A stretch of 64,000 bases of DNA, taken from Amphiscolops sp. MND2022. Lineage: Eukaryota. Location: assembly GCA_964187785.1 (NCBI GenBank), contig OZ076409.1, positions 33,234,001-33,298,000 on the forward strand, written 5' to 3'. Below, one piece after another: positions 11,414 through 64,000 of the stretch (the first letter of the stretch is position 1; each line of letters starts with the position of its first letter). Below the pieces are notes generated by a model. That model saw only the letters and a list, made by a program, of their open reading frames with translations. It did not search any database and was not told the origin of the DNA. The position numbers and the translations under genes were made by a program.

Positions 11414-11428
11414 AAAAATGAGGTCTCA

Positions 11429-19352: not shown

Positions 19353-19476
19353 GTAGAAATGAAGAATTGCAGTGGTTGTAATTTAGATTATAGAAAATCC
19401 TTAAACTCCGATCGTTATAAATCAGTAAAAAATCTTGGAAAATTAAATCAGTATTTTTGTAAAAATGTGATTTTCA

Positions 19477-23906: not shown

Positions 23907-24049
23907 TTATAATAGAATGAAGTCTAAGATTTGCATTATCAAACCGAAGGCGCTTCTCGTGAATATGTCTCATGATGATTTAAATTTTAAGTTGATAATA
24001 ATTTTACTAGATAAGGATAGCCTAAAAAAGTAAACTCAGAATTTAGTTT

Positions 24050-24502: not shown

Positions 24503-24545
24503 TGAATGCACCGAAGGCACTTCGCGTAAACAAGGATACAGTTTT

Positions 24546-25094: not shown

Positions 25095-25379
25095 TTATTT
25101 TTGCATTTTCTATATTTTTATTTATATCTGAGAATAACTTTGCATTGTTTTTTATATTTGATCCACCGTACTTGAGTTGAATTTCTTCTTTATTTTGTAG
25201 TTTAAATTCAATAATATATGTTTCTAATTCATTAGACATATCAATAAGTTTAATGTTAATTCATTTGGTTTGTAATTCCAATTCTTTTTCAAGATTCTCA
25301 ATCTTATGTTTTTTGCAAACTCTCGCACTATAACCAAACTTATGAATTGCCATTATTTAATAATGTATAAATACTCTAA

Positions 25380-26251: not shown

Positions 26252-26508
26252 TTAATAATCTGGACTTTTTCACCTAATCGGTGATAAAGCAAAGCTGGCT
26301 TCGCATACCGAAGGCGCTTCGCGTAAGGTTGATATTATACTGTTCCGAAGGCGCTTCGCGTACCGAAGGCGCTTCGCGTAGTTTTTTCGGAATAAATGAA
26401 CAAAAAACATTAATTTTTTTTGCGTGTAATTTGTATGATAACTTTATATATTTATTGGTATTATATTAGGCCTAGACATCACAAAAAATTTTACTAAAAC
26501 TTAAAACA

Positions 26509-27375
26509 AATCAAGGGATTTAAATATTCTCATTTAACTTATCTACCAGAAGAAAAATTACCCCAACCAGTCAGTATTACAAATTGTCAAATGTTAATTC
26601 ATGGTACTAGTGGGTCAGGTAAGACATTTTTCCTTTAGTATTATTTAAATCAAACTAAATCAAATTTTATAGTATTCGGTAGTGATGAGACTGAGTTTCA
26701 CTATGATTGGTATGTACCTTTGTTGCAGTTAGAAAAGTTTGATATTGAATCACTTTCTAATAACACGATAAATTTAGAGGATGCAGGTGCATAAAAATCC
26801 TTAACACGAAAGTAGAAGACTTATTCCGGTTTTGTAGACATCATAATACACAAGGTATTTATCTTTGCACACTATGCAAAGGATGTTTTCCCAATAGTGA
26901 GAGAGAATTGATTTAAGTTATTTATAACAATTGTCAACCAAGATAGTTTCTTTGAAACAATTACAAACACTCATTCATTCAAAGATCTCAAGTAGAAACA
27001 ATACCGTGATCAGTTAGAATTTGGTATAATTGAATATGATACTAGATCACAAAAGTACAAAGTATTCAACCAGAAGTATCAGGTAGTTTTTGATACAACT
27101 AAACATAAATAGAGTCCTCAGGGTTATGTGTGTTTTGAGGCATAAATTTTTACTGGTGATGAATAAAATTGACTTAAAATCTTTTTGGAGGAAATGTTGG
27201 ATCAGACAATAGAATTAACCCATCAAAATATTCCTTATTATTATGTGAAGTATTGTAAACAAAATAAAATAAAAGTGAATGAATCCAAAATAGACAACTA
27301 GATAGGGCGTATGCAACAACCTAAATTTTCAGACAATCTTGAAGAGAATTTTAAGACTATAATATTAGCCCAGTG
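26509..27375 (+). pseudogene. P-loop ATPase no. 1 (FtsK/A32-like), decayed
   Basis: MLIHGTSGSGKTFFL Walker A at ~26591-26635; INLEDAG Walker-B-like at ~26768; later CRHHNTQ motif. Many stops, so absent from the ORF track. Confidence 0.7.
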
Positions 27376-27585
27376 AATCAGGTTTGGTGAAAATAATTAA
27401 ATATAATTAATTGTAATTAAATAATATATAAAGTAATGAAAATATTGCATCTGTTTTCTTAGTGATTTTTTAGTAAAATCACTAAGCAAATTCACTAAGA
27501 GGCTATATTCTCAGTCAGCCTTGTATCTCTGCACTCGAGAAGATATACCTTAAGTGACTTAGTGATTTAGTTATTTTTTACTATA

Positions 27586-30006
27586 TGAACGAAGTGTTTA
27601 ATTTGTAATGAATGTAGTGAAACTTCGCTGTGCGATGATTGTAGTAATAAAAAGAGACGTAAGAACTGTATCATAATGAAGACAGATTGTTTTTCAAACA
27701 AAAATGGTAAAATGTATGGTACATGCAAAGAATGTTTCAATAAAAAGTTGATGTGTAAATACAGTAATCGTGAATTCAATAAAACATTCTTATCAAAACA
27801 TGTCGAGATGCCTTATAAAAAACTTCATTCGAATAATACCGAAGGCGCTTCGAATATTACCGCAAAGCTGGCTTCGCATAAAATGATAAATCATAATGAT
27901 GAAAATAATAATGATGAAAATAATAGAACAAAAATAGTTGGTCCAACATTTTGTGGTAAGACCCATTTGTTTTTAAACAAATTACAATTAATTCGCTTGG
28001 ATAACCCTGAACAACGAACAAAAATAATAAGCAGATCACCGGAACAATATACAAATACAGCTTTGCTGGCCTTCGGTATAGAAATAGAAGACACTTCATT
28101 GGAAGAAGATGTAGAAGATGGAACAATACAACATTTTCAAAATTGTTGTGTTGTATTTGATGATATGTTGGATAGTACTCGAAAACTAATAGATCCGTTT
28201 TTTACTAGAGGATGACATAATGATTTAGAACTGTGATGATTTTCAACTGTTAGGGAAAGCAACCATTTGCGAGAAACAGGTGGAGGACGGACGGCAACTG
28301 AGCAACCAAACAGTGAACGCTGACTCTGCAAACCGCAAACATGACAGTCTTACCTACTGACAGTCTGGCACCAACTCTAACTCATTTGTTGAACAATTAA
28401 CTGCGTGCAGTGTCGTTAGTCGTTACTCCATATTCACTCGCACAATGTCTAAGCAGCTTCGGTCTGATGTATCCCGTGCGCGCATGTTTGCGTCCGAGTT
28501 TACTTGTTTCGAAGTTGATGGTGCGTTATTATTTTGCAAATTCTGCGAGACGGCGGTAGATTATACAATCAGATCGCGTGTTACTCAGCGTAGTAATACT
28601 GTTAAGCACCAAACCGCTTCTCATAGACAAAAACCCAATCAAACGTTTTTACAGGCCGCTAATACTTCCAAAACTGACAAGTTTACCGCAAATTTGTGTC
28701 AAGCATTGCTTGCCTCTAACATCCCAGTTTATAGGCTTAACTCTCAACCATTTCGGGAATTCCTACACAAGTATACCCAAAGGCAAATCCCAGAAGAATC
28801 CACACTGCGCCAAATCTATATAGCGGCGTTTTACCAGTAGAAATTCGAGAAGCTACAGGCACTTTTCGCTGGGAAACGATTTTGGCTTAGATTCGACGAA
28901 ACTACAGATGCAAAAAACCGGTTAGTGGCTAACGTCCTTATGGGTATTCTGGACAAAAACGAAACTCAAATTCCGTATCTTGTTCAGCTAGTTTTTTTTC
29001 GAGAAAACAGACTATTCGGGCATCTCTCAAAGCATCATTAGCACACTGAAGTTGGTCTTCAAGTGTGGCATTCTTTACGGTAAAATCCTCGTGTTGCTGA
29101 CAGATGGTGCTTCTCATAACAAGAAAGGTCTTTGAGGAATAATTCCGAAACTGATGGAATACAAACTCTTGTGGAGAAAGACAACCGACATCAGGTTGAA
29201 GCAGAACTGAATTGCATTCGCTCAAAGTATGGTCTTCTTAGCAGTTTTTTCCCGCAGTTGCAGAAAAGACTGTCAATCTTGGAATGCATTGAAAAACTGG
29301 ACAAGATAAAATCCCAGCTGTTTCACGATATTGGAAAAAAGAAACTCATTGCTAAACTGGATTGCAGGAAATTCTTCAAGTAGAAGATCAGCTTGTATCC
29401 GGAACACTGATTGAGGGACATTTTCGTGTTCGAAAATTGTCTATGGAGGACATTAGAGCTGCAAAGTTTGCCCCTTCAGCAGCCAATGACGTGGAGCGAA
29501 ACTTCTGCATTTACTCCGATATTCTGAGTTGCAAACGACACGCCCTTACAGAGGACTCTCTGACAAAACTTACGTTTACGTTTTTGTACATAAATTCCCA
29601 ACTGTGAAGTCTGCGTATTTTTGGTTTAATCAACTATTTTTGCAACTATTTCTGATTTTCTGTTGACCATTGTAGTTACTATTTTAGAAGTTTAATGAAA
29701 CTCTTTTCCGTGCGTTATTTATCACAGTCATACTTTAATTTGACTAAAGGCACCATACACAACAATAGTAAAATAATAATTTTTTTCCAACAATCATTGA
29801 GTGATGTAGAACATGTATACAGAGAAATAGCAGGTTTCGATATGTCTTATGATGAATTCAAAAGTTTCTGCAGAGAAGCATGGAATGGAAAATATAATTA
29901 TCTAAAAATAAACAGGCTAGAAGGTAAACACGGGTACAAGTATAAAATATGCAGTGAATCTATTCCGAAGTATAAGTTCTTCAATCCACAAACGGGTCCT
30001 TTTTAA
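27586..30006 (+). pseudogene. Packaging ATPase no. 2 (A32-like) with N-terminal Cys-rich zinc-finger region, split by a hAT insertion
   Basis: IVGPTFCGKT (Walker A), CCVVFDDML (Walker B), FTRG*HNDL before the insertion; YLSQSYF...TIHNNSKIIIFFQQ...MSYDEFKSFCREAW after it (29715-30006). Confidence 0.88.
28230..29712 (+). mobile_element. hAT (CGGBP1-like) DNA transposon relic nested in the Polinton ATPase
   Basis: ORF pieces LFCKFCE...TVKH, LLASNIPVYRLNSQPFREFL, FDETTDAKNRLVANV, LTDGA, KFAPSAANDVERNFCIY. Higher GC than flanks. TIR/TSD not clean, so ends are approximate. Confidence 0.85.
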
Positions 30007-32944: not shown

Positions 32945-34440
32945 TTAATAGTTATTTTTCATCGATTTCATTTTTTTTCGTCGTTAAAATCACTCATTTT
33001 CGAGAAAAATGAGAAAAACCAATTTTCACATCTATTTTGGCAAGTGCTGATTGCTGGGTTCAAGATACAGAACACTTCATTTTTGATACAAATGTATCTT
33101 CTGATAAGGAATCTAATTCATTTTCAAAATCTTCTATTTTGGAATGGATTATTTGGGCCATTTTTCCTTGACTCTTTATCATATCTTTTAAGTCCTGATA
33201 TTCCCTTAATTTTAGCTGTTCACTAGAAAAACCAGACTTTAAGATGATGAAAAAGCCGGATGTTTTAACATCATTGGCGTTTCGAGACCTTTCGAATGAT
33301 GTATCAAATGTAGGGTTTCTGAAACTTTTATATTCTCTACCATGAAGATGCATATGTTTAAGGGTTTCAGGTTTCAGTCTAAAACCGCTACTAAATTCAG
33401 TCTAAATTTAAAATTACTTCCAACACCAATGTTTGCAATCATTTGTTTGCAGATTACATGTCAAGTGAGTTTTGACGTTTGCATGGAGCTTCCAGTTTTA
33501 CTTCCGCCCGCTTGCGTTTTCTTTGGTTTTTAACACCATTTCGGAGTTGCACCGCACTAAGCGTCTTCATTATCTCACGTCGTTTATTCTCTTTCTCTGT
33601 TATTTTCTTCAAGTTTTCCAGTATATTAGTCGCAAAAACGATGTGTGTTCGAACAATAGACACTTTAACATTTTCTATACAATTGGCCAGTTAGGTTAAA
33701 TACGCAATGTTAATCAACTGATTGTCTTTTTTCAGATCCTCTTGCATTTGTGCCACATAATCGCCGATATCTTCTTTTATTTCTCCATGTCGTTCAATAA
33801 GTTGTTTTATATTTTGAACCAAACTGTTTGTTCAAGATGAAAACGTTAAAATGGTTTTGTATCTTTTTTCACTTGCAACGTGTATTTACTATGCTCAAAC
33901 ATTGTGAAAAAACCGACAAGTTTAGAAAAACCGATATGAAGAATAATAAAATGTTATCGTTTTTACTGGACTTGTGGGAAATAATACAGCAACGCTGGCT
34001 TCGCATACAGCAACGCTGGCTTCGCATACAGCAACGCTGGCTTCGCATACAGCAACGCTGGCTTCGCATACAGCAACGCTGGCTTCGCATACAGCAACGC
34101 TGGTTTCGCATATCGCTTTGTAACGGTTAGATATAAATTTGGATTGTTTCCACTTGTGCGCGTTAGTTATTCAAGTTTTATATTAATGCCATGCAACAGT
34201 GTGTTTCCACTTGAATGCTACATTTCGTTCCAAAAAATTCTCTTTTACTATACACAGCAACATGGAGGATAGTGATTTTTTCCTTGGGACAAATATTTTC
34301 AGTGGAAGTTTTTGTTCAGTGATTTTTATTTCGTTTGTTTTTTTTTAGTTGCGAAAAATGATTAATTTTAGGTGATTTGCCTTGAAAATATGCTTAGTTT
34401 GATGGTCTGGCTGATCAGGATCTGCATTTCGCATACTTCT
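32945..34440 (-). repeat. Polinton right TIR, about 1.5 kb
   Basis: Inverted, noticeably diverged copy of 13694-15190; followed by TSD CCCTAT. Confidence 0.88.
33984..34109. repeat. Tandem repeat, 6 x 21 bp ATACAGCAACGCTGGCTTCGC within the right TIR
   Basis: Directly visible; left TIRs hold 3 degenerate inverted copies (~14025-14087, ~18299-18360). Confidence 0.95.
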
Positions 34441-45999: not shown

Positions 46000-46810
46000 A
46001 ATTGAATTAGAGTAAAGATAAGAAACGTGATAAAAATACTTCTATTGAGTAAACGTTTTCGACGTTTCTGTCATTGTCAAATTCTAAAAACAAATTATAC
46101 ATAAAACAATAAAAAACAACTGTAAGTTTTCAAAAAATGTAAACATTAAAACAAGTAATCCAGCACACTGGTTAACAGCTATCTTTACTTACACATTGAG
46201 ACATCGAAGCTCATAATTTCTGACAGCCAAACATAACGTTTGGGACGGCTAAATTCTTATGGTTAACAATCGCTGTCTGTATTCGTCTCGGGTGTTTAGA
46301 GCCGGTTTCCGTCTGTCAATGTGGAGTGCCTCCAGCGTCTGAAATGTGACTTGGTCTCCTGCGGTGTCAATAATTTTCCAAGAGTAACTGCTTGAGCCTC
46401 CCATGCATGTTTTCAGATGTTGTCCGAGGGGCTGCGATTCTCTATGATGTTCATTGAAACGAGTAGAAAAATGTCGGACAGTTTGACCAACATAGCTGAG
46501 CTTGCACCCAGAACATGTCATTTCATATACTACTCTACTTTTTAACATTCTAGAGAACCCACTCTTTAAACTCGGCAATAGGTTTTTCAGTTTGTTCGTT
46601 GTAAAAATCGGCTGTATTGGTATGAGTTTTCTGAGTTTTTGAACAAATTGATCAGTAACCCGCCCCCTGTACTGAATAATAAAGTGGTCTTTCTTTGTTT
46701 CCTTGTCCCTGTGTGCATTTCCAACACTGTTGGAAAATCTCTCTCTGCATTTCTCGAGGGTATCTAGCACGATACCATCAGTAAACTCTTCCGGATATCA
46801 GTTCTTCTTG
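46000..46810 (-). mobile_element. 5'-truncated Penelope-like element: GIY-YIG endonuclease C-terminus plus 3' tail
   Basis: ORF 46249-46770: VVYEMTCSGCKLSYVGQTVRHFSTRFNEH...LEALHI..RKPALN (CxxC within GIY-YIG, PLE type); upstream N*YP remnant. Confidence 0.88.
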
Positions 46811-47497: not shown

Positions 47498-47575
47498 AAA
47501 TAGCTATGGCTCAGTGGGTGAAGGCGAAAAGGGAGGAAAATATCCCGGTGCTTAGCGGGTGTCTTGTTTTACCAA

Positions 47576-48293
47576 TGTAACGTCAGCCACTGGCATGACA
47601 AAATTTCGATGAAAATTTCGAAATGTGCGATATCAAAACAGCACATTCAAAATGGCCGACCTAGCAGGTACCAAGACGTGAACGAGAGAAAAAAGTGCGC
47701 GAAAGCAGAACAAAAAAGAAAGCACGTGAGAAGATATCAAAAAAAGAAAGAAGAACGCCATGGAAAAGAAGGAGAATTCAGCAGAAGAAAAGGTCAATCC
47801 AATCGGAATGTTGTGCCATCTCTCCGAAAAGACACCCGAATATGAAGAACGATGCCAGAGGCTGAGTCGATGAAGAACCCTAAACTGTAATGTTGTTGGT
47901 GCTTATCCCCGTATTTTGTTGTCATTTATCAAGTATTTGGGTGATGTTAGACCTACTAGGTCTCAATTTTAGAACTTATTCACCAAATACAATGTATTTT
48001 AGCTAGACACCTTTTTGGACCTCAGAAGTATGTAGGAAGACATAGGAACGTGCTAGAAACCTTAGGAAACGTTTTTACAGGCTTGTGGGGCGTGTCCGGA
48101 CTTTGAGGGTGCCGGCGCGTCGCTTCGGAGCTCTAAATTGAGAAGCCTCCTTTGACGATAGAAAAGTCCCCCTAGGAGACCATTTTGGGATTAAAAACTA
48201 GTGCTTAGGGATGTAGTAAGACAAGGGTCTCCTGTTTAAGCACCCTAGGCATTGTCCCTCTTCCTAGATGTGCGTCGCTAGCCGGTCGTTACA
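47576..48293 (+). repeat. 5' LTR (718 bp)
   Basis: Direct repeat of 62975-63689 with scattered substitutions. Confidence 0.95.
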
Positions 48294-48309
48294 TCTGGAA
48301 TAGTTTTTA

Positions 48310-48327
48310 TGGCGACCACAGAGGGAT
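48310..48327 (+). promoter_or_regulatory. Primer-binding site, tRNA-Arg(TCG)-like
   Basis: TGGCGACCACAGAGGGAT, 16 nt downstream of the LTR end. Confidence 0.8.
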
Positions 48328-51250
48328 ATTTTTCATTTTGCGTACAAGTAGGAGCAACTTCTGCTTTCCTGCCCTGTTAGGTCTGGATCTAGGAAGAGCT
48401 AAAGGGAGGGTCCTAGATTGTTTTTATAGCTTTTTTTCTAGCCCTCTGGGCTCTGTACAAGTGTTGTTTCTACGTTTCCCGCATGTTTCTGAGGTCTATA
48501 ATGAGAAATTAACAGTTTCTAACGGTGTTCCCCCCTGATCTTTACTTGTACTTAACAGAAAAGCAAATCCGGGCTATCCGGAACGTGTTTTAAAGGGTTT
48601 TCCAGCCTTTTTTCGGCTAATTGACAATGTAGAGGGACCGAGAGGACAATTAGTGAACGCCTCAATCAGCTGAGTGCAAGACGTCAGGTACTTCACGTCA
48701 CCACCTCACTCTCCCCTGCAGTGGCCGAGTCTACAAGTACAGCTGAGTTATTTCATTCCTATCGCTTTTAAAGACCCAAAATGAGTAATCCCAGGCCTGT
48801 TCCCATTGTAACTAACTGAGAAGAATACCCAGAGGGTGTTCCGATCAGTTGTTAAAAATTCGAGCTTGACAACCTCGAAAATAACGCTGTTTATGGCTTA
48901 AACCCCGAAATTTTCGTTTTTGAAAGCAAAAATTTTGTTAGACGAAATACGGCCAGTGGGAATAAAAGAATAACGTTTTAACAGACCCGGTGGGTCTAGA
49001 ACAAGAAATTTTGCAGGGCCACTTTTTCGAAAATAACGAAAACCCGAGTGAATTTAATTGAAAAATCGTAACAATCGGCCATTTTGACCCAATTTGACAC
49101 GGGCAAAGCCTTGGGCGTTAATTCCCAAGCCTTTTAAAAGCCCCAAAAGTTCTGTTGTCGAGCTTTGTAGTCTGAGACACTAGTACCAAGACGTTTTTTT
49201 TGCATTCCCCCAATATAAATTGAAACTTTATTAATCCCTTTCTTTTATTACACACAGGCCTGAGCAGAGGAACCCATAGACCCGAGTGTTATTGAAATCA
49301 AAATAAATATTGAAACCACCGCAAACCCCTAAATAAAGTTTTAGTACATCCGAAAGCTTCTGAAAAAGACCATTTGAAACATTGGAATACCGAGAAGTAC
49401 AAAGTTCTCAGCGAAAACGAACATTTTCTGTACTGTCCCGAGATTGTAAAAAGTGTAACTTAAATAAAAAGTTTAAAGACCTTATTTGGAACCAGGTTTT
49501 GCCTGCCTATTTTCTGTTAATACCAAGTATAACGTTGCAAACGCAGAAAACGGCGAGTGATTCCAACCAGTGGTTGCCGAGAAATAGTCAAAAACGTGTC
49601 ATTTCAGTGACAATTCCAGGACATTGGAGTAGCGTTCCCAGAGCAGGTCGAAATCTCTCCTAGTGAGAGCAGCTCAAAACAGATTGAACCATCGTATAGA
49701 CCACAAAAAGTTACGTTAGTGGTGTAACTTTCGTTGCGCTAGTATTACTGGTGATCGGGAAAACTTAGCCGCAGTTTTGCCCAAAAAGTGTACGAAATTG
49801 TAGAAAAAAATCAAATTTTAGTTGAGCATAGTGCAATACCTAGCAGGTATCCCAGCACTAAAATTCTTGCATTTTCGATTTATGCAATTTGAGCAGCCGG
49901 CTACTAGCGAAAACTGAGAAATTGACATTTTTGTGAATTTTGACCCGAAAAAGTGGTACCTCAGGTACATAAATATTTCGCCACCTCGAATCGCCAGATA
50001 CTGATCCAGGCACCCCGTCGCTAAATTTTTCTATTGTGTGGGCATAGTTTACGCTCGCATGCAAAATTTCAGGTAGCCTGGACGCCTAGAAGGCGAGTTT
50101 AACAGGTTCTTGTGAATTTCGTGACATAATAAAATTTTCAAAAAATGATGTAAAAAGACCGTAACACCCACTGAATCAATTTCTGCGCAATCGGTGACCA
50201 ATTTCCCACGATTCAACTGGTATAGTACATGGTGAGAAATTTTCGAGTCGCTACTAGCGCTGGAAGCAATTTTCACCATTTTCAAGCGTGCTATTTGACA
50301 TAAAATTCATCGATTTCCCAAAAATCTAACGAAAAATCGCTCGCTCCATAAGCCAAAACAAGCAAGTAAAGAACACAAATACCCAACTAGCGCAGAAAGC
50401 GTCTCCAACGCATCCCATTAAACCGATAATACCACTTAAAAAGCGTTTGCAAAATCAAGGACTCCCCGTGACACACTTATTGAGATAGAGAACTAGCAAA
50501 CCAATAATCAAGTCTATAAGAAAAATGAACGTTTGACGGCATAACACTACCATTACGGTACCCACCATCCCACCAAACTCAGTGCCTATCTCCATACAAA
50601 CTCCCAAAACCAACCTCCGTTTTCATTTAGCCCTTGACACTCGAATACATCAGTTAGAAAAACGTAGCGAAAGTTGAGCATCACAAACCCCAACAAGCGC
50701 ACTGCGCTGAGGCACTTTCAACTCACCGCCAAATTAAACAGCCACCCAAAACTCCAATTATGATTCCGCCATTTCACCCACGGCTCCCCTAGTAAACACA
50801 CAGTGCACAATAATCTGTGAACCCCGTCCCAGTAGACACAAAAAAATTGTTTATTGAAGTCGTACCATCTTCAACTTGCAAAAGGAGAAATCAAAACTTT
50901 CCGTTGACCTTAGTATGAAGTATAGCTTTAGTTATTTGAGTTAGCAGCAATATTACCGTTTCCTTAACTGACAATAATCTCAAAGAAAGATTATACCCGT
51001 GGAGGCGAAACGTCACCGTTCAGGCCCACTCATTCCTGTAATCAAATCAATCATTCGAACGGTAAACCGAATCAACTTACTTCCGTTTCCAAGGGGGAAG
51101 GATAGAGTTAGTAACCCCGCCACGAACCAAACCAACAAACTTAATCGCAATAGGTTCGCAAGCTACGGAATCAGCGAAGATGGATAGAGATTGCCTTGGA
51201 AACTTTCATGCCACGCATCCATTCGGCAATGAAGTGGAAACCAACATTAG

Positions 51251-53900
51251 GTGGACACTCTCACCGAAAATCTTCTTGACTCTACCATCACAGAAATATT
51301 CTCAGAATTCATGCCTGACTACGTCTCCAACTCAGAGCAGATTACAGAAATAACAGCTGCAGCCGAACAGCCCAGTTCGTCGCCAGCTTCCCCCAATAGC
51401 GCCAATCTGCTAGATAGTGCTGAAAACGCCACGCAAGGCAATGCGTGGCCCCCTCTAGAAGTCACTGACTATAGTTTAAAGGAATGGCTAAATTCAAACA
51501 ACAAGCCATCATGCGAACTGAGCACCGCAGAAGAAATCACATCGCAAGATAGCGATTTAGCCACTCCACTGGCGGCTCTCCGAACCCCATCAATCCACAG
51601 GGACCCACTGCGTTCCCTTGCACTGACCAATAGTGCAGATCGAGAACCCTTTTCAAGCGCATACACTCAACAAGCAGGACCATCTAAGGCATCGAACAAC
51701 CAAAATGAAAACCCGCCCAAACAAATCGAAGATAACCCACTGCGGTACGTCTTCAAAACGCCCCCACCAAGAAGCTTGAGCTTCGGTCTTGCAAATACTG
51801 AACGACCCACCTACACGCCTAGCTCCAAAACCAGTGCGGAAACAGCCCCAGATTCCACCGTCACGAAGATACGAAAAGAGTCGCAGGCAGTCAGAGAAGA
51901 CTTCCGAACCAGTCTCGCCCAACGATCCCAAGTGCACTCACGATTGGCACGAGAAAATGGCGAACACGCGATGCGCGCCGACGCCATCATGAGGGACATG
52001 GACAAAATGAGAAAAAGACTCCCGGAAATACAAGCGGAAGGACGCCAAAACCAAGTAAGACTTGAAGCATCAATGGCCTCGCTCAACGATCTAATCAAGC
52101 AGCGGGAAAACCAGGCCGCCACTCGCATGGCCGAAATGTCCGCCGTGATGAAAGAAAGAGATCGTCAAGCTGACAAACGCCTGAAACTAATGACTGACTT
52201 AATGCAGCGCAGGGAAACCGACGCAGACGCCCGTATGATAAATTTGATGACCACAATGAAAGATCTGACGTTAGGAGTGAGAGCAATGGCATCTCAAACA
52301 GTCGCTGCACAAGCGAAAGCAGCGCCAGCGGCGCCAATCGCACCCCATTCCAGCGACCTACCTTCTACTAGTGCAGTCCCGCCCCCACTGCAAGCCACCT
52401 ATCGAAAAGTAGCACTACCCAGCGTCGAGCAAACCAAACCACTAAAGCTAATACCGCCCGCAACATACAAGAGAAATCCCCCAAAAACCAGCAAAATGGC
52501 GAGAATCCTCCAGACTGAGTCCCGCAACGTTGGCACGGATCCACTGTCTAGCATCTCTCTTGATCCCTATGCCCACGGTGCGGTGCATCAGCGACGGGAA
52601 ACTATTATTCACCTGCGAGCGGAATGACCACGAGAGAGTCAAACTACCGCACTGCAAGGACCACAGCAAGCACCAACCAGCCGAAGCAGGCATACATAGA
52701 TTTGGTCTCGCCGGTGGCTACTAGCACACAGCGTAAACTTACGACTAAACGAATGTTGGAGCAAGACCCAACCGAAATGGGAGAAACCCCAGAATCTTCG
52801 AATCCAACCCCCGATAACCCCAGAACAAGTCAACGGCATGCGCTGGCAGAAGCCATATCAACCGCGATGTCGAAGGGCCTCGAACCACTACTGGCAGTCA
52901 AGGAATCAAAAATCAAACCCACGAAGTATCGGGGAACGAAAGATGGCAACGCCGACGGATGGATGATGTTAACGAAAAGCCATCTGGAAAAAGCGCACGC
53001 CATGGCAACCACCCTCGATAAAGCCTGGACAATTTTCAAATACCTTGAGCACGAAGCCAGAGATTACATCATTAACAAGTCCGAGGCGGAGAGAGATACT
53101 GACGAAAAGGTCTTTGCGTTGCTGACACGCCGATTCGGAACGGGATCAATCAAGATTCATATCCAACAACAATTCAGAACCAGAAACCAAAACAGCGAAG
53201 AGGACTATATGCAGTATCTAGACGCCCTTGAAGGCCTAGAAGAAGTAACCGTTCGACGATACGAAATCATGCGAAGATTCATAGAAGGAGTACGCAACTT
53301 TGAGTTAAAACGAAATCTCGCGTTAATGAATGCTCCGGAACAATACGTGGAAGCTACTCCAACAACGGAAGCGGTCCGCTTCACTGTTCAACAATACCTG
53401 CGCATGCGTGGCTCCTCGCATCCAGAAAACTATCAAATGGCCCCTCAGCACACAACAACCCCCACAACCCCATCAACAACCGAAACTGCCTCTGGCAGTT
53501 CCCACTCCAGCACAACTTGCTCAACAACCCGTCCAACAACCACCGCTCCAACAACCTGCGCCATATAGGCAACAACCTCAAAGAGCGTGTTTCAACTGTG
53601 GCGACCCATCACACTTTGTAAAAGACTGCCCACTAAGAGATCGCGCAAGAAAGCCGGTACAACAACATGTCAACTCTTGCCATACAAACCCATCCGGAGG
53701 ATGGACTTGCTCATCTCAACCACACGGAATAAAAAACGAAGCTTACCCTGCGTCATTACCAATCCAGGGAACTGTAGCCTTCTGCGTCACTTGTGGCTGC
53801 ACCGAACACTCAGCATCCAAATATATCGCCCCAGAAAACCCCAAGCAAGAAGATCAAATCAGGGCAGCATGGTATACCCCTCAAACCAGCCAATTCGATA
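51251..53900 (+). pseudogene. gag: Gag (long disordered/coiled-coil N-terminus, capsid, zinc knuckles), frameshifted
   Basis: Coiled coil at ~51870-52290; capsid-like KPTKYRGTKDGNADGW...FRTRNQNSEEDYMQYLDAL...RFIEGVRN; CFNCGDPSHFVKDC knuckle plus a degenerate second CVTCGCTEH. Confidence 0.88.
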
Positions 53901-54395
53901 ATTCGTCACAGGATGATCAAGTCCGAGTGATTTCAGTAGCTGAAGCCGGAGGCCCATCACGGCCCATTGTTGTCACTTGTGGCGAAAAACAGATGCTCAC
54001 CACGCTGGAGGCACCCGCGCCGGACTGCACTGGGACCCTCATTTCGATCCATCTGCTCCTTTCGGCCGAACAAAAATCACTCCCCGAATTGACATTGGCC
54101 CAGCTAGAGGAAAAGCTATGCAGAAATACCTTATACACTATCGTCGCTCAACCACTACCGCACTTCGCCAGAGAAGACGAAACCAAACTGGCACCCATCC
54201 AAAAGGTAAAGACAGACAGTTTCTCGAGTCCCAGTGGATATCCATGTAGATGGCGTAGACATGAAATTCGACGCATTAGTAGTCCTAGAAGGACACTTCC
54301 CGCAGGGACTATACTTAGGCCGCCAAGAACTGCAATGCTAAAATATCGGCGTCCAAGACGCACAGGGGGAAGCTAGGATAGACGAAAGGGTTTCA

Positions 54396-54857
54396 TTGGT
54401 AGTTGCCTTTGGCACCACCCTGCAAGAACCCATCCCGCTGTATGACATGATAGACACAGGTTCAGGAGTCTCCATCCTCTCACTTTTCGCACACCAAAAG
54501 ATCGCCTCCGCCCACACCTTGAGCCTTCTACCATACGATATCCAACTGTTTGCAGCCAACGGCAAAACCATTAACACCATCGGTATAGCCCAAAACGTAA
54601 ATTTCCAACTAGGTGGTCACACGCTGAAAACGAACTTCATCGTCATCGCAGATCACTTGGGAGCAGAGGACTTCTTGTTAGGCCGCAACTTTCTGCGCAC
54701 CTCTAACGTCCTCTTCGACATAACTGCAATGAGAGTCACCATTCGCGACCCCAAAGCTCCTCGCCATTCCAAACCAATCCATGAGGTTAGTAACCATGAA
54801 CCTTCCCTAGTTGTTTCCACTGAAAAAGTAGTATTAGGCCAATTTGAACTGAAACTT
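54396..54857 (+). pseudogene. Retropepsin aspartic protease
   Basis: MIDTGSGVSIL, LFAANG, FLLGRNFL. Confidence 0.9.
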
Positions 54858-55630
54858 TGTACGACCGATTCGGGCAACACTTGACTGTTAGTCATGATTG
54901 ATCACTTCACTAAATTGGCAGAAGCCATCCCATGGGCCCACGACGAATACGACGCGCAAACCACGGCTACGATCATCCTCAACAAATGGTTTGCCAGGCA
55001 TGGCACCCCAGCACGGATGCAATTAGACAATGCGACAAACTTCACGGCTGAAATAGCTCAAGAATTAATGAAGGCATCGCAAGTCACTAAAGTGACGTCC
55101 ACGCCCGCACATCCAAGAGGTAATGGACTCGTCGAACCCCAGAAGAGAACCTTGCTTACCTTGCTTAGAGTCTACACGTCACGCAAAATGCAAGACTGGG
55201 ATGAGCATATTGACGGAGTGTTGGGTGCCTATAACTCGACTCTCGCCGTACATGCTCCAACATGGCCCAGAAAAATCCATTCCACTGTCATTCATATACC
55301 CAGAATTCGCAGCACGAGGATTCGACTCTAACTAGGTATTCGTAAAACACCTGCTGGCAAGGCAACAAGAAATCCATGAGTTAGTTCGAAGAAATACCCA
55401 TCAAGCCCAGCCCAGGCAAAAATTGAAATTTGACCGCCACCTCAAGGCAAAAGCACACGCTGTTGGCGACGCTGTTTGGGTTTTCTGCCACATAATCCCC
55501 AAGGGTGACACCCACAAACTGATTCGCGCATGGCGCGGACCCCACAAAGTAACCGATGTATTACAAGACGGACGTCTCTACGTACTTGATATTGGCCAAA
55601 AGGTCCATTATGAAAGATTAAAAAAACACG
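54858..55630 (+). pseudogene. Integrase core (N-terminus deleted) and GPF/Y-like region
   Basis: GNT*LLVMIDHFTKLAEAIP, LDNATNF, TPAHPRGNGLVE, YNST, VGDAVW, WRGPHKV, VHYERLK. Confidence 0.92.
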
Positions 55631-57940
55631 TACACGCCCCTTGTGACTGTGCCACACACCAACCCTTCGGACCAAACCAGAACGTAGCCACAATAGCCGA
55701 TCCATATGTGGAGGAATCTAATGAAGAAATCACCTCGGACATCTCCTGAGATTCATTTCTACCGGAACAACTCCCAGAGCCATCGTTCGAATTAGAACCA
55801 ACAAGGCCGGTTCGCCCGCGAACTATCCAAACCCGCACACAGACTGCTCTAGAACAGGGAATCCCACGAAGAAGATTCAGTCACTTCGATTACCCATCCG
55901 ACTCCGACTCAGATCCAGCAATAACAGAACCACCAATCCCAGACCCAGCTCCCCAGGCGGTATTCCCAGAACTCGACGACTTGGATCCCCTATTCTCCGA
56001 TCAAGAAGAAGTTTAACCAGAGATGCTCACCGAGAGTTTGATACCATCACCCTCAGGGACATCAGTTCCATTGTTATCCAACCCATCGCTTACAGACACC
56101 CTAAGCAACTTCCCCGTCTTCGTCCTGAGTGAGTCAAGACCCTTACCACAGGCAGAGCAGCCACAAAGGACCAATACCGAGCAGGAGAGTCAGAACCTTG
56201 AAACATCCACACTCCCAGTCCAACCAAACGATACAAGCGGACGAGGAAGACCACGAGGTAGACCCTCTGGTCGCAGAAACCAACGTACTACTTCCTCTAG
56301 TAGGGACGCAACATCTTCTCGGAAGCCACCGCTGCGGTCCAGAAAAGGCCCCAGAACGAGATTCTCTACTAGAGCCCAACCTGGAACTCACGATAGAGCC
56401 ATGAAGTTGCCTGAGATTCTTGAGAGCCCCTCATCCACTCAATCCGGCTCACGCGGAAATGTTTCAACACAGGCACCACGATACCAGCTACGAGCAAATG
56501 GAGCACCACGTTATAAATGTGGAACCTGCGGTTCCCGTAACTGTACTTGCGTACGCCAGATCATCATCGAGCCTCCGAATCTTCGATTGGCCCGGGGAGC
56601 GGTGATCCCAGCTTGTGAGCTCGCTCTGGCACGCACACTTCAATACCCGCAACATAGGATCCTAGCTGTGCGAGCCCAACGTCAGGAACACGAACTCTCA
56701 CCTATTGTACGACACATCATCGTGACCGTGGAGAAGACCTATACCAGTACAGAATCCGGAGTAGTGCCACCTCTAGAATCCACGTTAAAAGCAATGCATG
56801 ACTCTTCCTCTGACTGCCCTACTTACCGCTTTAAAGAATGGACTTCTAATGAGCGTGGTGGACTGGAATGTACACTAACCGCTATTATTCCTCCGTTACC
56901 ACCCTCAATTACTTTCGGAGAAGTGGCTAAAGCGTGCACCAATACACAGATGATTCGTTGCATCAATGCGCACCATTTATGGGAGAAGTATCAGGTGGTC
57001 TTCCCCCCCGGGTGACGTCCACCAACCTACCCACGGCTGGTCGCTCTTGGTCACTTCCCTCGATCACTCCTCCCTAGTTTCCCCAACAACGCTATTGATA
57101 TGTCTGGAAAACTTGCGCACCCTCGTAGAGGTAGATGACACTCTCTGTTTCCACCTTGCCGTCATCTACCGCGGAAAGTTTTTGAGTCAACATTGGTTAC
57201 AACTAATAGCTATCACCTTCTGCCGACAAGCCAAGATCCCCATCTTAGATCGATTAACCTACACACCGGAAGCGCCAATCACTCCCCGCAAAGCCCTCTC
57301 TGTAATACACGACTGGTCATGCATCAATATGGGCGACCGCCCCTTACGCCACACGGTATGGGAAGAGCGTCGAGCAATTTTCGAACATTTGACACCACAG
57401 CCAATCGACATCAACGACGACGCTGCAGGAAAATGGCTCATAACGCAACCAAGAACCAGACCAAGCTACGTGCCCTGGATAACTTACTCCAACACGGATA
57501 TCCTACAGGCCCCAGGCACCGTAGTGCTATGCTGTCCAGCAGACTCATTTTCTTACTCTGCAACAGCTTGCTATGTCATTCGCGAATATGGGCAAGAAAA
57601 CATATTCCGCCTAAAGCCGTCAGTCGGCACAGCCGTACGCTTGGACCGCTCGCCTACTGCACCCTGGAACAATCAAATTTTTCTCCTGCGTACCGGAGCC
57701 TCCAATAAACATCCGCTACTGCATGAAACCCTACACGCATGCCTCACGCATCTCCTACATCAACTCCATCAATGTCGCGTCACGCGATTTCACTTGCCCA
57801 TCTATGACCCAGAACGATCAATCAACTTATTATCAACTTAATACGCCACGCTCCGCAACCACTTCACGGGTCATTACCTAGAAATAATTCTCCACGACCG
57901 CGTTTACGTTTCCATTGCATCGGTAACTTCGTCCATGTAA
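55630..57940 (+). pseudogene. Long Pol C-terminal extension: acidic/Pro-rich linker, GRP motifs, Cys cluster, two macrodomain-like modules
   Basis: RGRPRGRP, PRYQLR, CGTCGSRNCTC, then TDILQAPGTVVLCCPAD...YG...VGTAV...IFLLRT...LHACL...VTRFHLP...F...LEIILH, matching the Poa1p/TARG1 macro pattern. Confidence 0.6.
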
Positions 57941-58289
57941 GGATCACGGACATTCCCTGAAACTGAAAGGCCAGAGGCCTTCCCGTTTTTTTCTCCACCA
58001 CTCTTTCATATGTTAGTTCCGTATGACAGAACGCACTCTAGCTCTTTTAACGATCGAGTATCATAATAAAGACCTTATAGTCCTAAGCACTGTCTTTTCC
58101 AATTATATACCCCTGTCTTTGTCCCATCTGCTTTCAGTCTGTTCTCGATCTATCCTTTTATGTTCACTTGCAACTTGCGTTTCAGTTTTGTCCTGTTGCT
58201 TCGCCCTTGCGCAGATATCCTACATTGCACCATCACCTTGGTTCGCCAATTTTGTTGTATCACCCCCAGTGCTATCCAACCCACCATCA

Positions 58290-61200
58290 ATGGATGCTTC
58301 TTCACGCAATCGTTTGCCCGCACCTACCAGTCAATAAAACCAACGATAACGTCCTGCCAATTCCTCCACTACCAGCACCCCTACCTCTGTTGGCGAGGCC
58401 AATGGTCGAGTCGACCAGCTTGCCTTAGTCCAACAAGCGCTACAAAATGGGGCCACCCCCACAATGATCGCTGGCTTTGCCATGATCATAGCCCAGATGC
58501 AAGCGCAAGCAGCGCACCCAGAAGTTCTACTAACCATCACCAGTAGCATAGGGCCGCTTCAGCGTTCCGCCACCTTCCGCGATGGAGCTTGGCATGGCTA
58601 CGACCTGACTCATAACCTAATCGATCCACGCTCCCACATGATTTACGGAGAACCTACCAGGCCTCCCATGGACCAAGAACGATCGTTTAGAATCTCCCCG
58701 ACTACCATACAACTACCCCCAATCGCAGGCTGTGGCCCCTTCCCCCGCCGATACAACCTACAACATTCAACTGCAACCTACCCTTAGTTCCTCCCCCAAT
58801 TTTGACACCACCCATGCCCATGGCATCTGAAAGCGTGCATTCATTCACACACTCGTCAACTAACTTCATGCTCCCTTCCGCCTTTCAGGGGGGAGGGGTG
58901 CAAGTGAGTCCAACCGAAAATGAACAAACCACAACAGAAGGACAGACAAGAGAAAATCGTCAAAGCAGAACGGTCACCTTCGAAGACTCATACGAAGAGT
59001 TGACGCCATCCTCATCTAGAAGCGAACCTCCGAGAAACAAACATAGTCGCCTGATAGGCTTCCAGAAAGACCCCAAGTTGAAAGAACGTCAGCGGGAGCA
59101 ACAACGGACAGAAAGTAAAACCACCAATGCCCCCATAGACCTTCGAGATAAACTCAATGGTGGAAAGAGAGCCGGGGAACAAGGCGACCAATCGAGTTCA
59201 AGAGGGAACAGGGGAGTTCCAGCCCCTTCGCCTAGTCAACCAGAAGCCGGGAGACAAAACGTAACAAGAGAACTGCTCACCGCAACAGAAATAAAACAAT
59301 TGGACATAACTGCAAGAGACGCAGTGCGTCTCCAACGAGAAATTCCGAAAGCATCTGATGAAGAGAATCCCTCAAGGCAAAAAATTGAAAGTGCAACCAG
59401 TAAAGGAGACTATGCAACACAACGCACTATAGAGAAGGCCAACATTGGAGTGCTCTACACAAGGCCAGTTAAACAACCGATATTCACAAAATGATGGAAC
59501 CCCGCCATGGTTCGAACGTCTCCGAAGGGATTTACACAGAGATGACTCCTCTTACCTCCAACCCTTGCAGACCATTAGCGAGCGGCTTACCCGTCAAAGG
59601 CCTGGTAGATTCGGAGAAAACCAACTGCAGACCAAAAACTACGCTAGAGACCCAATTACTCTACTGCCAATGTGAAAAGATTTGCTACAGAAAACGAGGA
59701 TCGCACTCTTCGTCGACTCGACAATCAAATCCTCGTACAACGCCAATAACACCTTGATTGATGTCAGATTGATGAATCTGCCCTGCACCTCGCTCGGCGA
59801 GATGGTGGAAGTCACTGACAAAATATTCACGCCAGCGGCGGCAGAACCAATACCCGTACCCTCAATCTTGGTATCCTCAAACGTGATCGATCACCTCGCC
59901 TTGCGAGGAACGTTGAGGTATTTTGATATGCAACACACCCGGTTCACAGAAGGATTCGTAACTGATGAAGTAGTAGCCTATGTGGAAACGATGTCTAACA
60001 TCGCCACGAGGATGAGAAACAAAAAGCCAAATACATATACCGTGATTGTGTCACCCCCTGGGTTCATATATCTCCCAAGAGCATTACAACAATTCTTGTA
60101 TCTGGTGCTAGAAACTTCTTATGCAAGGGACTTACATTTTTATTTTGTAGCGCCAAACCTCAGAATCAATGTGACAACATCGCGCCCTTGTGAAGCCTCT
60201 TACCCCGCTTTCTTAGCAGAAATATCCAAGGCCGTACAAGGATACACTGTATATAGGGGAAATTCGCAACTTCTAGTCGACGAGGCAACAGCTTATGACT
60301 ATGGGATGCAAATGTCGCCCAGATCGTTAGACGAAAATGGTGTGTGCCAGGTGAACGATCCTAATGAACAAGAGCGCAAACACCTTGTGGATAATTTATG
60401 GTGCGAACGGAAGGACGAATCCTCTCTAGACGATAAGACCCATGATCCAAAGTTCCACAAAGAGCTACTAGCTCTATTCAAGGTGACGGAGACAATCAAA
60501 ATGGAGCCAAAAAACACCACAGTGTTTCCAATAGCTGCTATATCAACAGACGCGCAACCCGGAATGGTATCGCCCACACTGACACTACTGATAGTGATGG
60601 CACGGAACCTGGCAAAGCAAAACGAGACGAAACCCAGGCAAACCTACCAAAAATGGCACCAAGCCTTGCGCGAAACTTTAAATCAAGTCGCTCTGCGGCT
60701 AGAAATTCCGTTCCCGGTACTCCTATATAACATATCCCCATTCTGGCTCCCAGTTTCGTACAAACAGAATATTACTTGGACGACCAACAGACACGCTTAT
60801 ATATGGAAGCTATGCAAGGAGCCACGATAAGCGAGATCTTGGGATATTTGATGGCAGTCGGGCTACACACAGTGTTCAAAGGACGTTCTGGCCTTCTTCA
60901 AAAACTCATCTGATAAAGGAAGCTTGTCTCTCTTCAGCTTCTTAGTGTATGCCCAGAACCAAAAGAATTAGAATTGGCTACAAGCAATCCTATACGCCTT
61001 GGACCCAGCAGGTCCCTTACAGTTAAAGAAAAGCAACTGGAGCTCAACATCGAAACCCTCCTCGCGTGGATCTACTCCACCTGGGTCAACGTTGCAGGAA
61101 TAATGCATCCTCTGGATGAGAACCCTGCAGTCAACAGAGAACCCAACCACCTCCCAGGTTTCTTGTTCCCCTCGCAGATTGCCACACTCATGCTGGTAGA

Positions 61201-62408
61201 AACGGAAGACCTGATACCCCTAATCGCCCCCATACTTTGGCCAATCGTCGGTGCAGTTATGGCGTTGCGATTCCCAACGCAGGTCCTGCGAGTAGCAGCA
61301 AATGCCCCTTCCCTTTCTATTCTACACTTTGTGATATCGGATGGATCCCAGCGGGGTCCTACCTACCAAAGAGCAGTCAGCAGCTTTGCCTCTCTACGAC
61401 CACCCTTGGCCTACACAATCATCAAAGACAAGAAACAAGTGGAACACAACTTCGCATCAATTATTCGAGGACGTGCGCGATGCGCCCTCCCACTGCCCAT
61501 GGAGTTCCACCCAATCGAATGGCTACACATTCCCCTAGATCGTGAGACAGGCGCGGCGGAGTCTTTCGCAAACTGGAATGCAGAAGTAGTCCTGAGAGTT
61601 CTAGACACAATAGTCCAGAGACTGGGCGGCAGGAAACGAGGTGAAGAAACCACCGGGTTGCGATACCCCTATGTTTGCGACCCATCACATGCCATCGAAC
61701 CAGCCCTCGTGCATGCCCAGCTCGCATCCTGGACGCAACGACGTGCTGGTCAAAACCAGAATTGGTGGACTTGGCTGTCAAAATGAAAGCCAAAATAACC
61801 TTGGTGGGCAAGGAACCGAACAAAAAGACCTTGCCAATCAGCACAGAGGTCCCTACAATCCGCGCGCTGCGCTGGAAATTATTCCTAAATCTGCACAGCA
61901 GACAAAACAGAAAGGACAGTCGGTTGGCGAAGATTATGCACGTGGAATCCAAATCTTCAGGAGACTATTTGTGCAATATGGTCACCCAGAATTAGCCAAT
62001 AGCCTACCCGACTTCCCACAGGGAAGTACCTCTGACCAAAACGTTACAACAAGTGCGACTGCCCCTGGCAGTTCACAACAGTTATCAACAGGCATACTAC
62101 CCTCGAACAGAACCGAAACACGAATGGAAGAAGATCAAGAAGACTCACCCATTATTGTCGATCCTAACGATGAGCCAATGACGGACGACAACTTCATCTT
62201 ATCGGATGGGGGAACTCCTGCCCAAGACGAACCCGAGGCGGGAATATCGCAAATGGATGCAGCCGACATTGAATCCGAGCTAGATAATCTGCTAACTATA
62301 GACGACTCTGTTCAATATCCTCCCTTGGTGGCGGATCCTTCTGCAAACCCAGGAACAGCAGTCACATTATCCATCCCTGACCCACAGCCGAATCAAAATA
62401 ACAAATAA
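58290..62408 (+). pseudogene. Extra sense ORF in env position (roughly 1,350 codons if frames are joined), with SGNH-hydrolase-like core
   Basis: Chain of long co-linear ORFs (58464, 58802, 59682, 60974, 61641) separated by single stops or frameshifts. RIALFVDS...LPCTSL...ILVSSNVIDHL...RNKKPNTYTVIVSPPG recalls SGNH blocks. Confidence 0.65.
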
Positions 62409-62974
62409 AGAAGCTACCTACGCTAACCAAGTAGAAACTAGACAGAGAAACACGCCAGTTACTTTCAAAAACATAAAAACTTTGTTTTGTTTGAATGGCC
62501 CTTTGTCATTTACTTTCAGTTTGTGCTATATACATTGCATCCTCAAGCGATATTCACTATATACATTATGTTTTGAAAAGTACTCGCTTAAATTTTTGTT
62601 GAACCGCATTGCGTTACTGGGCCCTGAAACAGTGTCCACCCCCTCCCACCTGGTAATTCACTGTTGCTACAAAGATCCAAGTGTTATTACTCATGCAGTG
62701 CAAGAGCAATTTTAAAAGAATTTTTTTAAACCCAGACTGTTAATTTTAGAATCAACTGTCATACTTGTAATATTATCCAGTACTCCTAAACTTGTTAAAG
62801 CCTGTCAACACTAGTGCGAAAGGAAATAATAGGAAAAAAGTAGAAAAACAAAAGAAAAAGAAATGAAAACAATAGGGTTTTGTCTGATTGTCTAGGCGAC
62901 TCTCATCGCAGTTACCCTCTGGGTATGATCATCCTCTCATTTGTCGAGGACGACAAACTACGGCCCCGGGAGGA

Positions 62975-63689
62975 TGTAACGCCAGCCACCGGCATGACAA
63001 AATTTCGATGAAAATTTCGAAATGTGCGATATCAAAACAGCACATTCAAAATGGCCTACGTAACAGGTACCAAGACGTGAACGAGAGAAAAAAAGTGCGC
63101 GAAAGCAGAGCAAAAAAGAAAGCACATGAGAAGATATCAAATAAAGAAAGAAGAACGCGATGGAAAAAAGAGAATTCAGCAGAAAAAAAAATCAACCAAT
63201 CGGAATGTTGTGCCATCTCTCCGAGAAGACACCCGAAAGTGAAGAATGATGCCAGAGGCCGAGTCGATGAAGAACCCTAAACTGTAATGTTGTTGGTTCT
63301 TATCCCCGCATTTGGTTGTCATTTATCAAGTATTTGGGTGATGTTGGACCTACTAGGTCTCAAGTTTAGAACTCATTCAACAAATACAATGTATTTCAGC
63401 TAGACAACTTTTTGGACGTCACAAGTATGTAGGAAGTCATAGGAACCTGCTAGAAACCCTAGGATACGTTTTTACAGGCTTGTGGGGCTCGTCTGGACTT
63501 TGAGAGTGCCGGCGCGTTGCTTCGGAGCTCTAATTTGGGAAGCCTCTTTGACGATAGAAAAGTCCCCCTAGGAGACTATTTTGGGATTAAAAATTAGTGA
63601 CTAGGGATGTAGTAAGAAAACGGTCTCCTGTTTAAGCACCCTAGGCATTGTCCCTCCTCCTAGATGTGCGTCGCTAGCCGGTCGTTACA
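62975..63689 (+). repeat. 3' LTR (715 bp)
   Basis: Preceded by CCCGGGAGGA, followed by TSD CAA. Confidence 0.95.
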
Positions 63690-64000
63690 CAAGCTCTAGT
63701 TCCTCTTAGTTGAGAACATGCTTTCCTAAAAAATTTGGCCTTCTTGAAAATTTCCCATAATTGTTTCCAGAGCCCCTGCGTGTGTTGTTCTGTTGAAGTA
63801 GTTTATCTGCTGTTTCACATTCTTTTTGTTGCAATGACTCAATGAAATCGTTGCTTGAAATGCAAAATGATCATTTTCAGTTCAAATTTCAACACGTGAA
63901 CGGAGAATTAATAACGTTTTTTTTTCCAACGCGTTTGCCTTGAGCCAGTTTTATATTCCAAACATAATTTAGAGACTCTTCATCAACATTCAACTTTCAT

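Follow-up and report, generated by a model that had tools for sequence, protein, structure and literature searches.

A large third open reading frame with a predicted, catalytically remodelled SGNH domain in a Ty3/gypsy-type element of Amphiscolops sp.

Two described systems stand closest to the locus reported here. The bdelloid Vesta long terminal repeat (LTR) elements carry a GDSL/SGNH third open reading frame (ORF3), known from 1.3-kb amplicons and reported, in the accessible text, to have intact catalytic residues and no transmembrane (TM) or coiled-coil domains (Rodriguez et al. 2017, PMC5408684). In non-LTR elements, the esterase of ZfL2-1 ORF1p binds anionic lipids and liposomes, and its active-site mutants still bind (PMC3905857, accessible text). 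We analysed a stretch of 64,000 nucleotides from Amphiscolops sp. MND2022 (GenBank assembly GCA_964187785.1, contig OZ076409.1, positions 33,234,001 to 33,298,000 of the forward strand), called the window below, which contains a Ty3/gypsy-type LTR retrotransposon of ~16.1 kb with a third open reading frame, also called ORF3, between Pol and the 3′ LTR. A sequence-only reading of this ORF had invoked the SGNH domains in ORF1 of non-LTR elements; that precedent holds, and the LTR-element case, which the reading had passed over, was already known from bdelloid Vesta (PMC5408684). An SGNH third ORF is a known kind, and this one is three times larger, multi-domain and catalytically remodelled.

The limits proposed by the sequence-only reading, 58290 to 62408, were exact: ORF3 starts at an ATG (58290) and ends at a TAA (62406-62408), and residues 1-1382 of P0077, a natural and uninterrupted protein of 1,382 amino acids (aa), are colinear with 58290-62405, at 79% identity in the first high-scoring segment pair and 55-69% in most of them. 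P0006, P0008, P0010 and P0011 mapped onto the ORF in the same order. The coding had been called nearly continuous, and this was wrong for the window copy, in which comparison with P0077 reveals 7 or more frame changes (near 58710-58745, 59485, 60740-60760, 60905-60940, 61010-61045, 61685 and 61860-61910) as well as 4 or more in-frame stops (58335, 58347, 59673 and 60969). Uninterrupted single-ORF relatives do exist, so the reading as one ORF stands. The longest piece of the window (59676-60830) matched 18 unnamed ENA proteins (675-1,429 aa, 58-85% identity), five of which have no interruption and approach full length (1,277-1,429 aa). Six of the clusters contain 51-342 members each, with 24 of the 90 members listed reaching at least 1,340 aa. 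With E values no higher than 0.001, a profile search returned 564 representatives, the majority of them fragments; among the 150 representatives listed, 16 share <40% identity with the close families. A distant full-length lineage (P0253-P0255, with P0254 representing 491 members) is colinear with ORF3 from end to end, at ~30% identity between lineages. These alignments show a single predicted product of ~1,400 aa in the relatives, and hence a real conserved gene.

ORF3 and its relatives had no significant match in Pfam, PHROGs or NCBIfam, a single ORF3 piece found no match among PDB sequences, the ESM Atlas gave no usable match, and scans of viral contigs and metagenome contigs found no relatives. 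Several weak candidates were set aside: a Lipase_GDSL_2 match (E 0.07, in 1/50 rows) was attributed to chance because the part of P0057 that it covers, residues 291-359, does not belong to the SGNH domain; matches to designer PPR proteins among PDB sequences were sums of repeats, each at E >3, and were rejected; a CBP80 match (E 0.17) was not significant; and helical scaffold clusters of the ESM Atlas, at 0.80 or less, were at chance level. The family, which has no Pfam match, is a large protein family newly added, with a conserved ~460-aa region in env position. Such an ORF3 is not described in the literature searched, with Repbase and most subscription papers lying outside that search. SGNH or esterase terms were not met in the accessible text of PMC13524379, the accessible parts of 10.1101/2022.08.27.505549, PMC6338049 and PMC7250577 hold nothing on such an ORF3, and PMC6431247, in its accessible text, restates the bdelloid case and likewise holds nothing on it.

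The core of ORF3 was modelled with AlphaFold2 from the window's own uninterrupted stretch (59676-60455; alignment of 50 rows), giving a predicted local distance difference test (pLDDT) of 84.5 and a predicted template modelling score of 0.82. In a VIA search of 48,161 solved chains, where the typical chance best has a Z of 7-8, the best match was 3p94 (Z 11.7; root-mean-square deviation, rmsd, 3.5; 166 aligned), and other matches included PAF-AH (Z 11.0), TesA (1jrl, Z 10.9, second pass) and Oskar OSK (5a4a, Z 8.7). The 50 best matches listed are SGNH-type, most of them by title. The SGNH fold was also indicated by Foldseek against PDB and viral models and by the second pass of VIA; the matches span model residues ~2-196 only (59679-60263). 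According to the model, the core of ORF3 is an SGNH/GDSL fold, a flavodoxin-like alpha/beta/alpha unit forming a whole domain. The globular alpha/beta region that the sequence-only reading placed at 59690-60250 is therefore identified with the SGNH fold by the match at Z 11.7, and the domain matches SGNH rather than an Env or a named host gene. Sequence libraries (Pfam, PDB sequences) do not recognise it. In a comparison of six proteins from three lineages, numbered on P0077 and used for all counts of invariant positions below, the domain (residues 471-660) is among the best-conserved parts of ORF3 (43/190 positions invariant).

Profile alignment with hhalign connected 35 ORF3 rows with 20 bacterial and phage SGNH domains (score 31.4, E 3e-4, 92 columns), while 30 column shuffles never exceeded 17.0 and the reversed control reached 14.7; TesA alone gave no usable alignment, the 20-sequence SGNH profile being needed. 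The local alignment sets T-T-S/W-R-P of ORF3 on D-G-I-H-P, the D-x-x-H-P of block V, and then follows the final helix, with R-P falling on H-P. The global alignment sets F-V-D-S-T on L-G-D-S-L, with a probability that is low taken alone, and agrees with strand 1 of the model. Residues were counted in the 36 proteins of at least 1,190 aa, which belong to three lineages and are mutually non-independent. P0016, a natural relative whose C-terminal half is tandemly duplicated in frame, was excluded from these counts. The nucleophile site is Ser in 36/36 (32/33 in a wider set), and the residue before the D of this motif is V, M or I in place of Gly (block I reading V/M-D-S-T as against G-D-S-L). The site of the catalytic His is Arg in 36/36 and, in the wider set, in 36/40, with His in 1/40, a degraded fragment; all six lineages obtained at a 45% identity cut have Arg there (19/22, 4/4, 2/2 and three singletons). 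At the acid site of block V, Asp occurs in 0/36. The block II site holds C in 33 and L in 3 of the 36, with Gly in 0/36 and in 0/42 rows of the wider set that have a residue, the register being that of the global alignment and secondary structure. Two His residues only are invariant across the six compared proteins, in N-x-x-D-H after strand 3 and in the N-terminal D-L-T-H; that of N-x-x-D-H is Tyr in the distant P0166.

Since Arg occurs in all six lineages, it is the natural state of the family and not decay. Because Arg takes the His site in all 36 long proteins and in every lineage, and the Asp site is not conserved, the SGNH domain of ORF3 is probably a pseudo-esterase. Membrane penetration of the lipase type appears unlikely, because the His and Asp of block V and the Gly of block II are lost.

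Outside this domain, ORF3 is a mosaic of conserved and variable parts (Table 1). The sequence-only reading had taken the N-terminus as disordered, which is not true of all of it: the variable linker (20% identity with the distant lineage) is preceded by a conserved ~100-aa block at ~58410-58700, where 16/98 positions are invariant against 11/205 in the linker. D-L-T-H was present in 62 of 68 proteins picked by motif search. The invariant motif extends to W-x-G-x-D-L-T-H-x3-D-x-R-S (58590-58640), and its D-x-x-H spacing is that of the SGNH acid-base pair. The ~460-aa region downstream of the SGNH domain shares 27-34% identity with the distant lineage and has no significant family or PDB sequence match; its helicity is seen in a low-confidence model alone (675 aa, 8 sequences, pLDDT 36). 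Within the hydrophobic stretch already marked at ~61150-61340, the segment could be located precisely. Its Kyte-Doolittle (KD) peak was 1.83-2.22 in the nine long relatives screened and 1.58-2.11 in the distant P0256, P0248 and P0253, with a Glu inside in P0248, and it is kept at 1.6-2.2 in every lineage that covers the region. Such a segment could be either a buried helix or a monotopic anchor. Residues 1121-1382, the variable and acidic end, have 5/262 invariant positions; the acidic tail noted earlier from the sequence was recovered, with a net charge of -17 to -25 in four relatives and -6 in a distant one.

The layout does not resemble an envelope protein. By hydropathy, the measure used, no signal peptide was apparent, the first-window KD value (first 43 residues) being at most 0.54 in 9/9 long relatives and -0.54 in P0253. 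A furin-type R-x-K/R-R was found in 1/9 long relatives and is not conserved, and the six compared proteins share no invariant Cys (0). The hydrophobic segment lies ~390 residues from the C-terminus, which is acidic and has no TM anchor, and no Pfam or PDB sequence match to an Env or F family was obtained for ORF3. Because signal peptide, conserved furin site and invariant Cys are all missing, ORF3 is, judged from its sequence, not an Env or known fusogen, and its layout suggests a cytosolic protein. The view of ORF3 as lacking an obvious signal peptide, furin or fusion-peptide layout is thus upheld by these values, and so is that of a large non-Env ORF with an SGNH core; no observation points to a fusogenic or cell-to-cell role.

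Table 1. Positions of ORF3, its predicted parts and the surrounding element in the window.
Feature	Position	Strand	Basis
5′ LTR (TG...CA)	47576..48293	+	93% identity (669/720) to 62975-63689; ends read
Primer-binding-site-like stretch, starting TGG, 16 nt past the 5′ LTR	48310..48326	+	sequence
gag, in frameshifted pieces; CCHC knuckle near 53582-53632	51251..54376	+	Pfam zf-CCHC E 1.2e-4
Aspartic protease	54342..54884	+	Pfam gag-asp_proteas E 7e-6
Integrase core and GPY/F-like module, broken	54885..55749	+	Pfam rve E 2.6e-7; GPY/F by eye
Long Pol C-terminal extension, no family match	55750..57940	+	Pfam, PHROGs, NCBIfam, PDB sequences: nothing significant
Polypyrimidine tract, acceptor-like AGs ending 58137 and 58214	58094..58243	+	base composition
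ORF3, broken here; ~1,360-1,440 aa in uninterrupted relatives	58290..62408	+	tblastn colinearity with P0077, P0006, P0008, P0010, P0011
Conserved N-terminal block, W-x-G-x-D-L-T-H (D 58602, H 58611)	58410..58703	+	residues 38-135; 16/98 invariant
Pro/Ser/Thr/Gln-rich variable linker	58704..59300	+	residues 136-340; 11/205 invariant
Basic segment directly before the SGNH domain	59301..59687	+	residues 341-470; net +5 to +8, isoelectric point (pI) 9.6-10.1, 5/5 relatives
Predicted SGNH-fold domain: Ser 59718, N-x-x-D-H 59880-59894, Arg 60183	59688..60260	+	model, fold search, hhalign, residue counts
Conserved ~460-aa region, probably mostly helical	60261..61640	+	residues 661-1120; 86/460 invariant
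19-residue Pro-rich hydrophobic segment before R-F/Y-P	61211..61267	+	Kyte-Doolittle
Acidic, poorly conserved tail	62025..62408	+	pI 4.1-4.8
Polypurine tract position: loosely purine-rich tract adjoining the 3′ LTR	62946..62974	+	sequence
3′ LTR (TG...CA)	62975..63689	+	pair of 5′ LTR, 93% identity

The interpretation we favour, tentatively and with somewhat less than even confidence, is that ORF3 is a conserved accessory gene of large Ty3/gypsy-type elements that encodes, on a spliced RNA, a targeting scaffold located in the cytosol and associated with membranes. The ORF3 mRNA would be a spliced subgenomic RNA, using the acceptor-like tract at 58094-58243. No other 150 nt of the internal region are as rich in pyrimidines (71% compared to a mean of 49%, standard deviation 6%), with T at 42% compared to 22%, and the ORF3 start at 58290 is the first ATG downstream of the AG at 58214; the AG criterion is by itself weak, 18 sites of the internal region passing a stricter version. 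The protein would stay on the cytosolic side of the membrane, where the SGNH domain would act as a binding module and not as a hydrolase, docking on anionic lipids together with the basic segment that precedes it, while a phosphate or a carboxylate could occupy the remodelled Ser/Arg pocket. The monotopic anchor and scaffold would come from the Pro-rich hydrophobic segment together with the helical region. ORF3, acting like a matrix protein and not as a fusogen, would guide the ribonucleoproteins or particles of the element to a membrane compartment, there to be assembled or trafficked. Membrane binding by ORF3 is plausible by analogy with the ZfL2-1 esterase, which does not need its active site to bind liposomes.

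Several observations weigh against this scaffold model. The net charge of the SGNH domain is near neutral (-1 to +3), in contrast to the basic membrane face of the ZfL2-1 esterase. The hydrophobic segment may be no more than a buried helix, given its three prolines and, in P0248, a Glu. For the C-terminal ~460-aa region, the model (pLDDT 36) gave no readable fold. The N-x-x-D-H motif after strand 3 is strongly kept (N 35/36, D 35/36, His 36/36), with a register relative to the G-x-N-D of block III that is ambiguous, and the high conservation of these residues and of the Ser around the former active site would fit an unusual enzyme as well. Moreover, the placing of the relatives in LTR elements is drawn from the window and from copy numbers.

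The same fold could serve RNA instead of lipid. It is possible, if doubtful, that the SGNH domain binds the genomic RNA (gRNA) of the element like Oskar OSK, and that ORF3 acts like Cer1 CERV or Rev in the export or localisation of unspliced RNA or in its protection from silencing. OSK has an SGNH-like fold without catalytic residues and binds RNA (PMC5785220, PMC10792757, accessible text), and CERV, the product of a spliced LTR-element mRNA, is required to export gRNA (PMC10309623, in its accessible part). OSK is among the fold matches of ORF3 (5a4a, Z 8.7, rmsd 4.4, 159 aligned), but it ranks 49 of the 50 best matches listed, under ordinary esterases, and lacks the Ser retained in ORF3. An Arg where the His used to be, a basic flank and the long ~3 kb 5′ leader of the element would suit an RNA-binding protein; such a role, however, leaves the conserved hydrophobic segment unexplained, and no RNA-binding family in Pfam, PHROGs or NCBIfam matched ORF3. 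An active enzyme is unlikely, though it would account for the residues that have been kept. Here the catalytic set would be rearranged, with Ser as nucleophile and a base supplied by the His of N-x-x-D-H or of the N-terminal D-L-T-H; the substrates of such an acyltransferase or deacylase would be lipids, glycans or host proteins. Both invariant His residues lie in these two motifs, Ser and the N-x-x-D-H His occur in 36/36 and Asn and Asp in 35/36, and SGNH proteins in which D/H come before S/G/N, or from another chain, are known (PMC10792757, accessible text). Nevertheless, the block V loop is still present and occupied by Arg, block II has no Gly, D-L-T-H is ~375 residues distant across a variable linker, and in P0166 the N-x-x-D-H His has given way to Tyr.

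A role in transmission is harder to reconcile with the layout. We consider it improbable that ORF3 is a true Env substitute driving budding, fusion or direct transfer of particles between cells, as its env position, the env-like splice-acceptor region and the single conserved hydrophobic segment might suggest. Env-independent transfer through sORF2 has been reported for Drosophila MDG1-group elements (PMC11952523, PMC13486581, accessible text), but sORF2 is a short transmembrane protein, whereas ORF3 has 1,400 aa and lacks a signal peptide, an invariant Cys or a clean TM anchor; the authors of the bdelloid GDSL ORF3 also argued for auxiliary over env-like roles, as far as the accessible text of PMC5408684 goes. 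A bolder variant, which we regard as a long shot of only slightly better standing, would see in ORF3 a captured SGNH esterase turned into a 1,400-aa Env-independent transmission module: a pseudo-esterase, or a catalytic set split by way of the N-terminal D-L-T-H, would, together with the ~460-aa region, possibly a new fold, be anchored on the inner leaflet of the membrane and convey particles from cell to cell or to the germline. It seems very improbable that ORF3 was captured from the host, or is carried as a passenger, without serving transposition. The window copy is dead, as a passenger's might be, but full-length colinearity at ~30% identity between lineages, many uninterrupted copies across several families with invariant motifs, and the absence of a named cellular gene among the named matches (18, 9 and 4 proteins; 240 cluster members) all speak against it.

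The element that carries ORF3 shows the features of the Ty3/gypsy type, with paired TG...CA LTRs enclosing gag (CCHC), protease and integrase, in the order protease then integrase. The gypsy assignment is read from the integrase and the GPY/F-like module, partly by eye, reverse transcriptase (RT) being gone from the window copy. The protease frame runs directly into the integrase core at ~54850-54885, and seven motif patterns for RT, RNase H and the integrase zinc finger (HHCC) had no match in the three sense frames. The window copy is therefore a dead, RT-deleted, non-autonomous deletion derivative that kept ORF3. The leader between the 5′ LTR and gag (48294-51250) is ~3 kb long and has no ORF of at least 125 aa, and the stretch at 48310-48326 may, by its sequence pattern, be the primer-binding site. 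In the gag region a PNMA match in Pfam (E 0.029) stayed under the cut-off. The position of ORF3 between Pol and the polypurine tract was given correctly at the outset, the tract itself being merely loosely purine-rich. A clean target-site duplication is absent (CCAA at 47572-47575, CAAG at 63690-63693), possibly through mutation or recombination between two copies. The Pol extension contains a C-x-x-C-x4-C-x-C cluster near 56520, seen by eye. Its end (57479-57937) resembles by eye a TARG1-type macrodomain, a candidate only; Pfam, PHROGs, NCBIfam and PDB sequences gave it no support, and hhalign, in which the YmdB type only was compared, stayed at shuffle level.

Elsewhere in the window, fragments at 20404-28212 resemble by eye the protein-primed DNA polymerase, integrase and P-loop ATPase of a putative Polinton-like element; they had no Pfam match at E 0.01. 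A GIY-YIG-like frame on the minus strand (46249-46797; Pfam E 0.0038, under the cut-off) is possibly a Penelope-like relic. Direct repeats 6,767 bp apart at 4661-12142, identical over their first 300 nt, with a further copy near 750-1400 and a GC-richer interior, possibly represent another LTR-like element. Tandem duplications occur at 12367-20538 and 33071-34440 (spacings ~4.0 and 4.27 kb), and an inverted copy lies at 33-34.4 kb, with a 21-nt tandem array at 33963-34130. By themselves, the relics of other mobile elements in the window would suggest eukaryotic DNA, probably from an animal.

Compared with the described systems, ORF3 most resembles that of Vesta: both are non-env third ORFs located after pol in Ty3/gypsy-like LTR elements, both have an SGNH fold, and for both a membrane or auxiliary role has been proposed (PMC5408684, accessible text). 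In contrast to the GDSL ORF3 of Vesta (1.3 kb), the present one extends over 4.1 kb and has lost the G and H, Arg standing at the site of the latter; it also adds the N-terminal block, the conserved ~460-aa region and the hydrophobic segment, in a comparison made by description and not by sequence. With the ORF1p esterases of CR1/L2, RTEX and Penelope, represented by ZfL2-1, it shares a retroelement-borne SGNH domain, and its fourth-strand Ser (35/36) may, by eye, match the transposon-specific S228 of ZfL2-1 (PMC3905857, in the part accessible). ZfL2-1, however, has an intact S143-H282-D279 triad and measured activity, and its domain lies upstream of RT and after a coiled coil in an ORF1p of ~300 aa (PMC3905857, same source text); the PDB entry of this esterase is absent among the 50 fold matches listed. 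Oskar OSK (5a4a) likewise has an SGNH fold without the catalytic triad and is a binding module, but it is a host germ-plasm protein and has Asp where ORF3 retains Ser (PMC5785220, PMC10792757, accessible text). As extra non-Env proteins, Cer1 CERV, which acts in RNA export, and the sORF2 of the MDG1 group, which acts in cell-to-cell transfer, are comparable to ORF3 (PMC10309623, PMC11952523, PMC13486581); the accessible text of these papers, compared by description, does not mention an SGNH fold for either, and sORF2 is a short TM protein. Among retroelements, SGNH domains are found repeatedly, in CR1/L2, RTEX, Penelope and bdelloid LTR elements. The ORF3 and ORF1 versions described keep their catalytic residues, whereas here the fold and the Ser are held and all six lineages have settled on Arg at the site of the His. 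Such a replacement, with the Ser kept, sets binding apart from catalysis and lets the choices between enzyme and binding module, and between lipid and RNA, be tested directly on one 190-aa domain.

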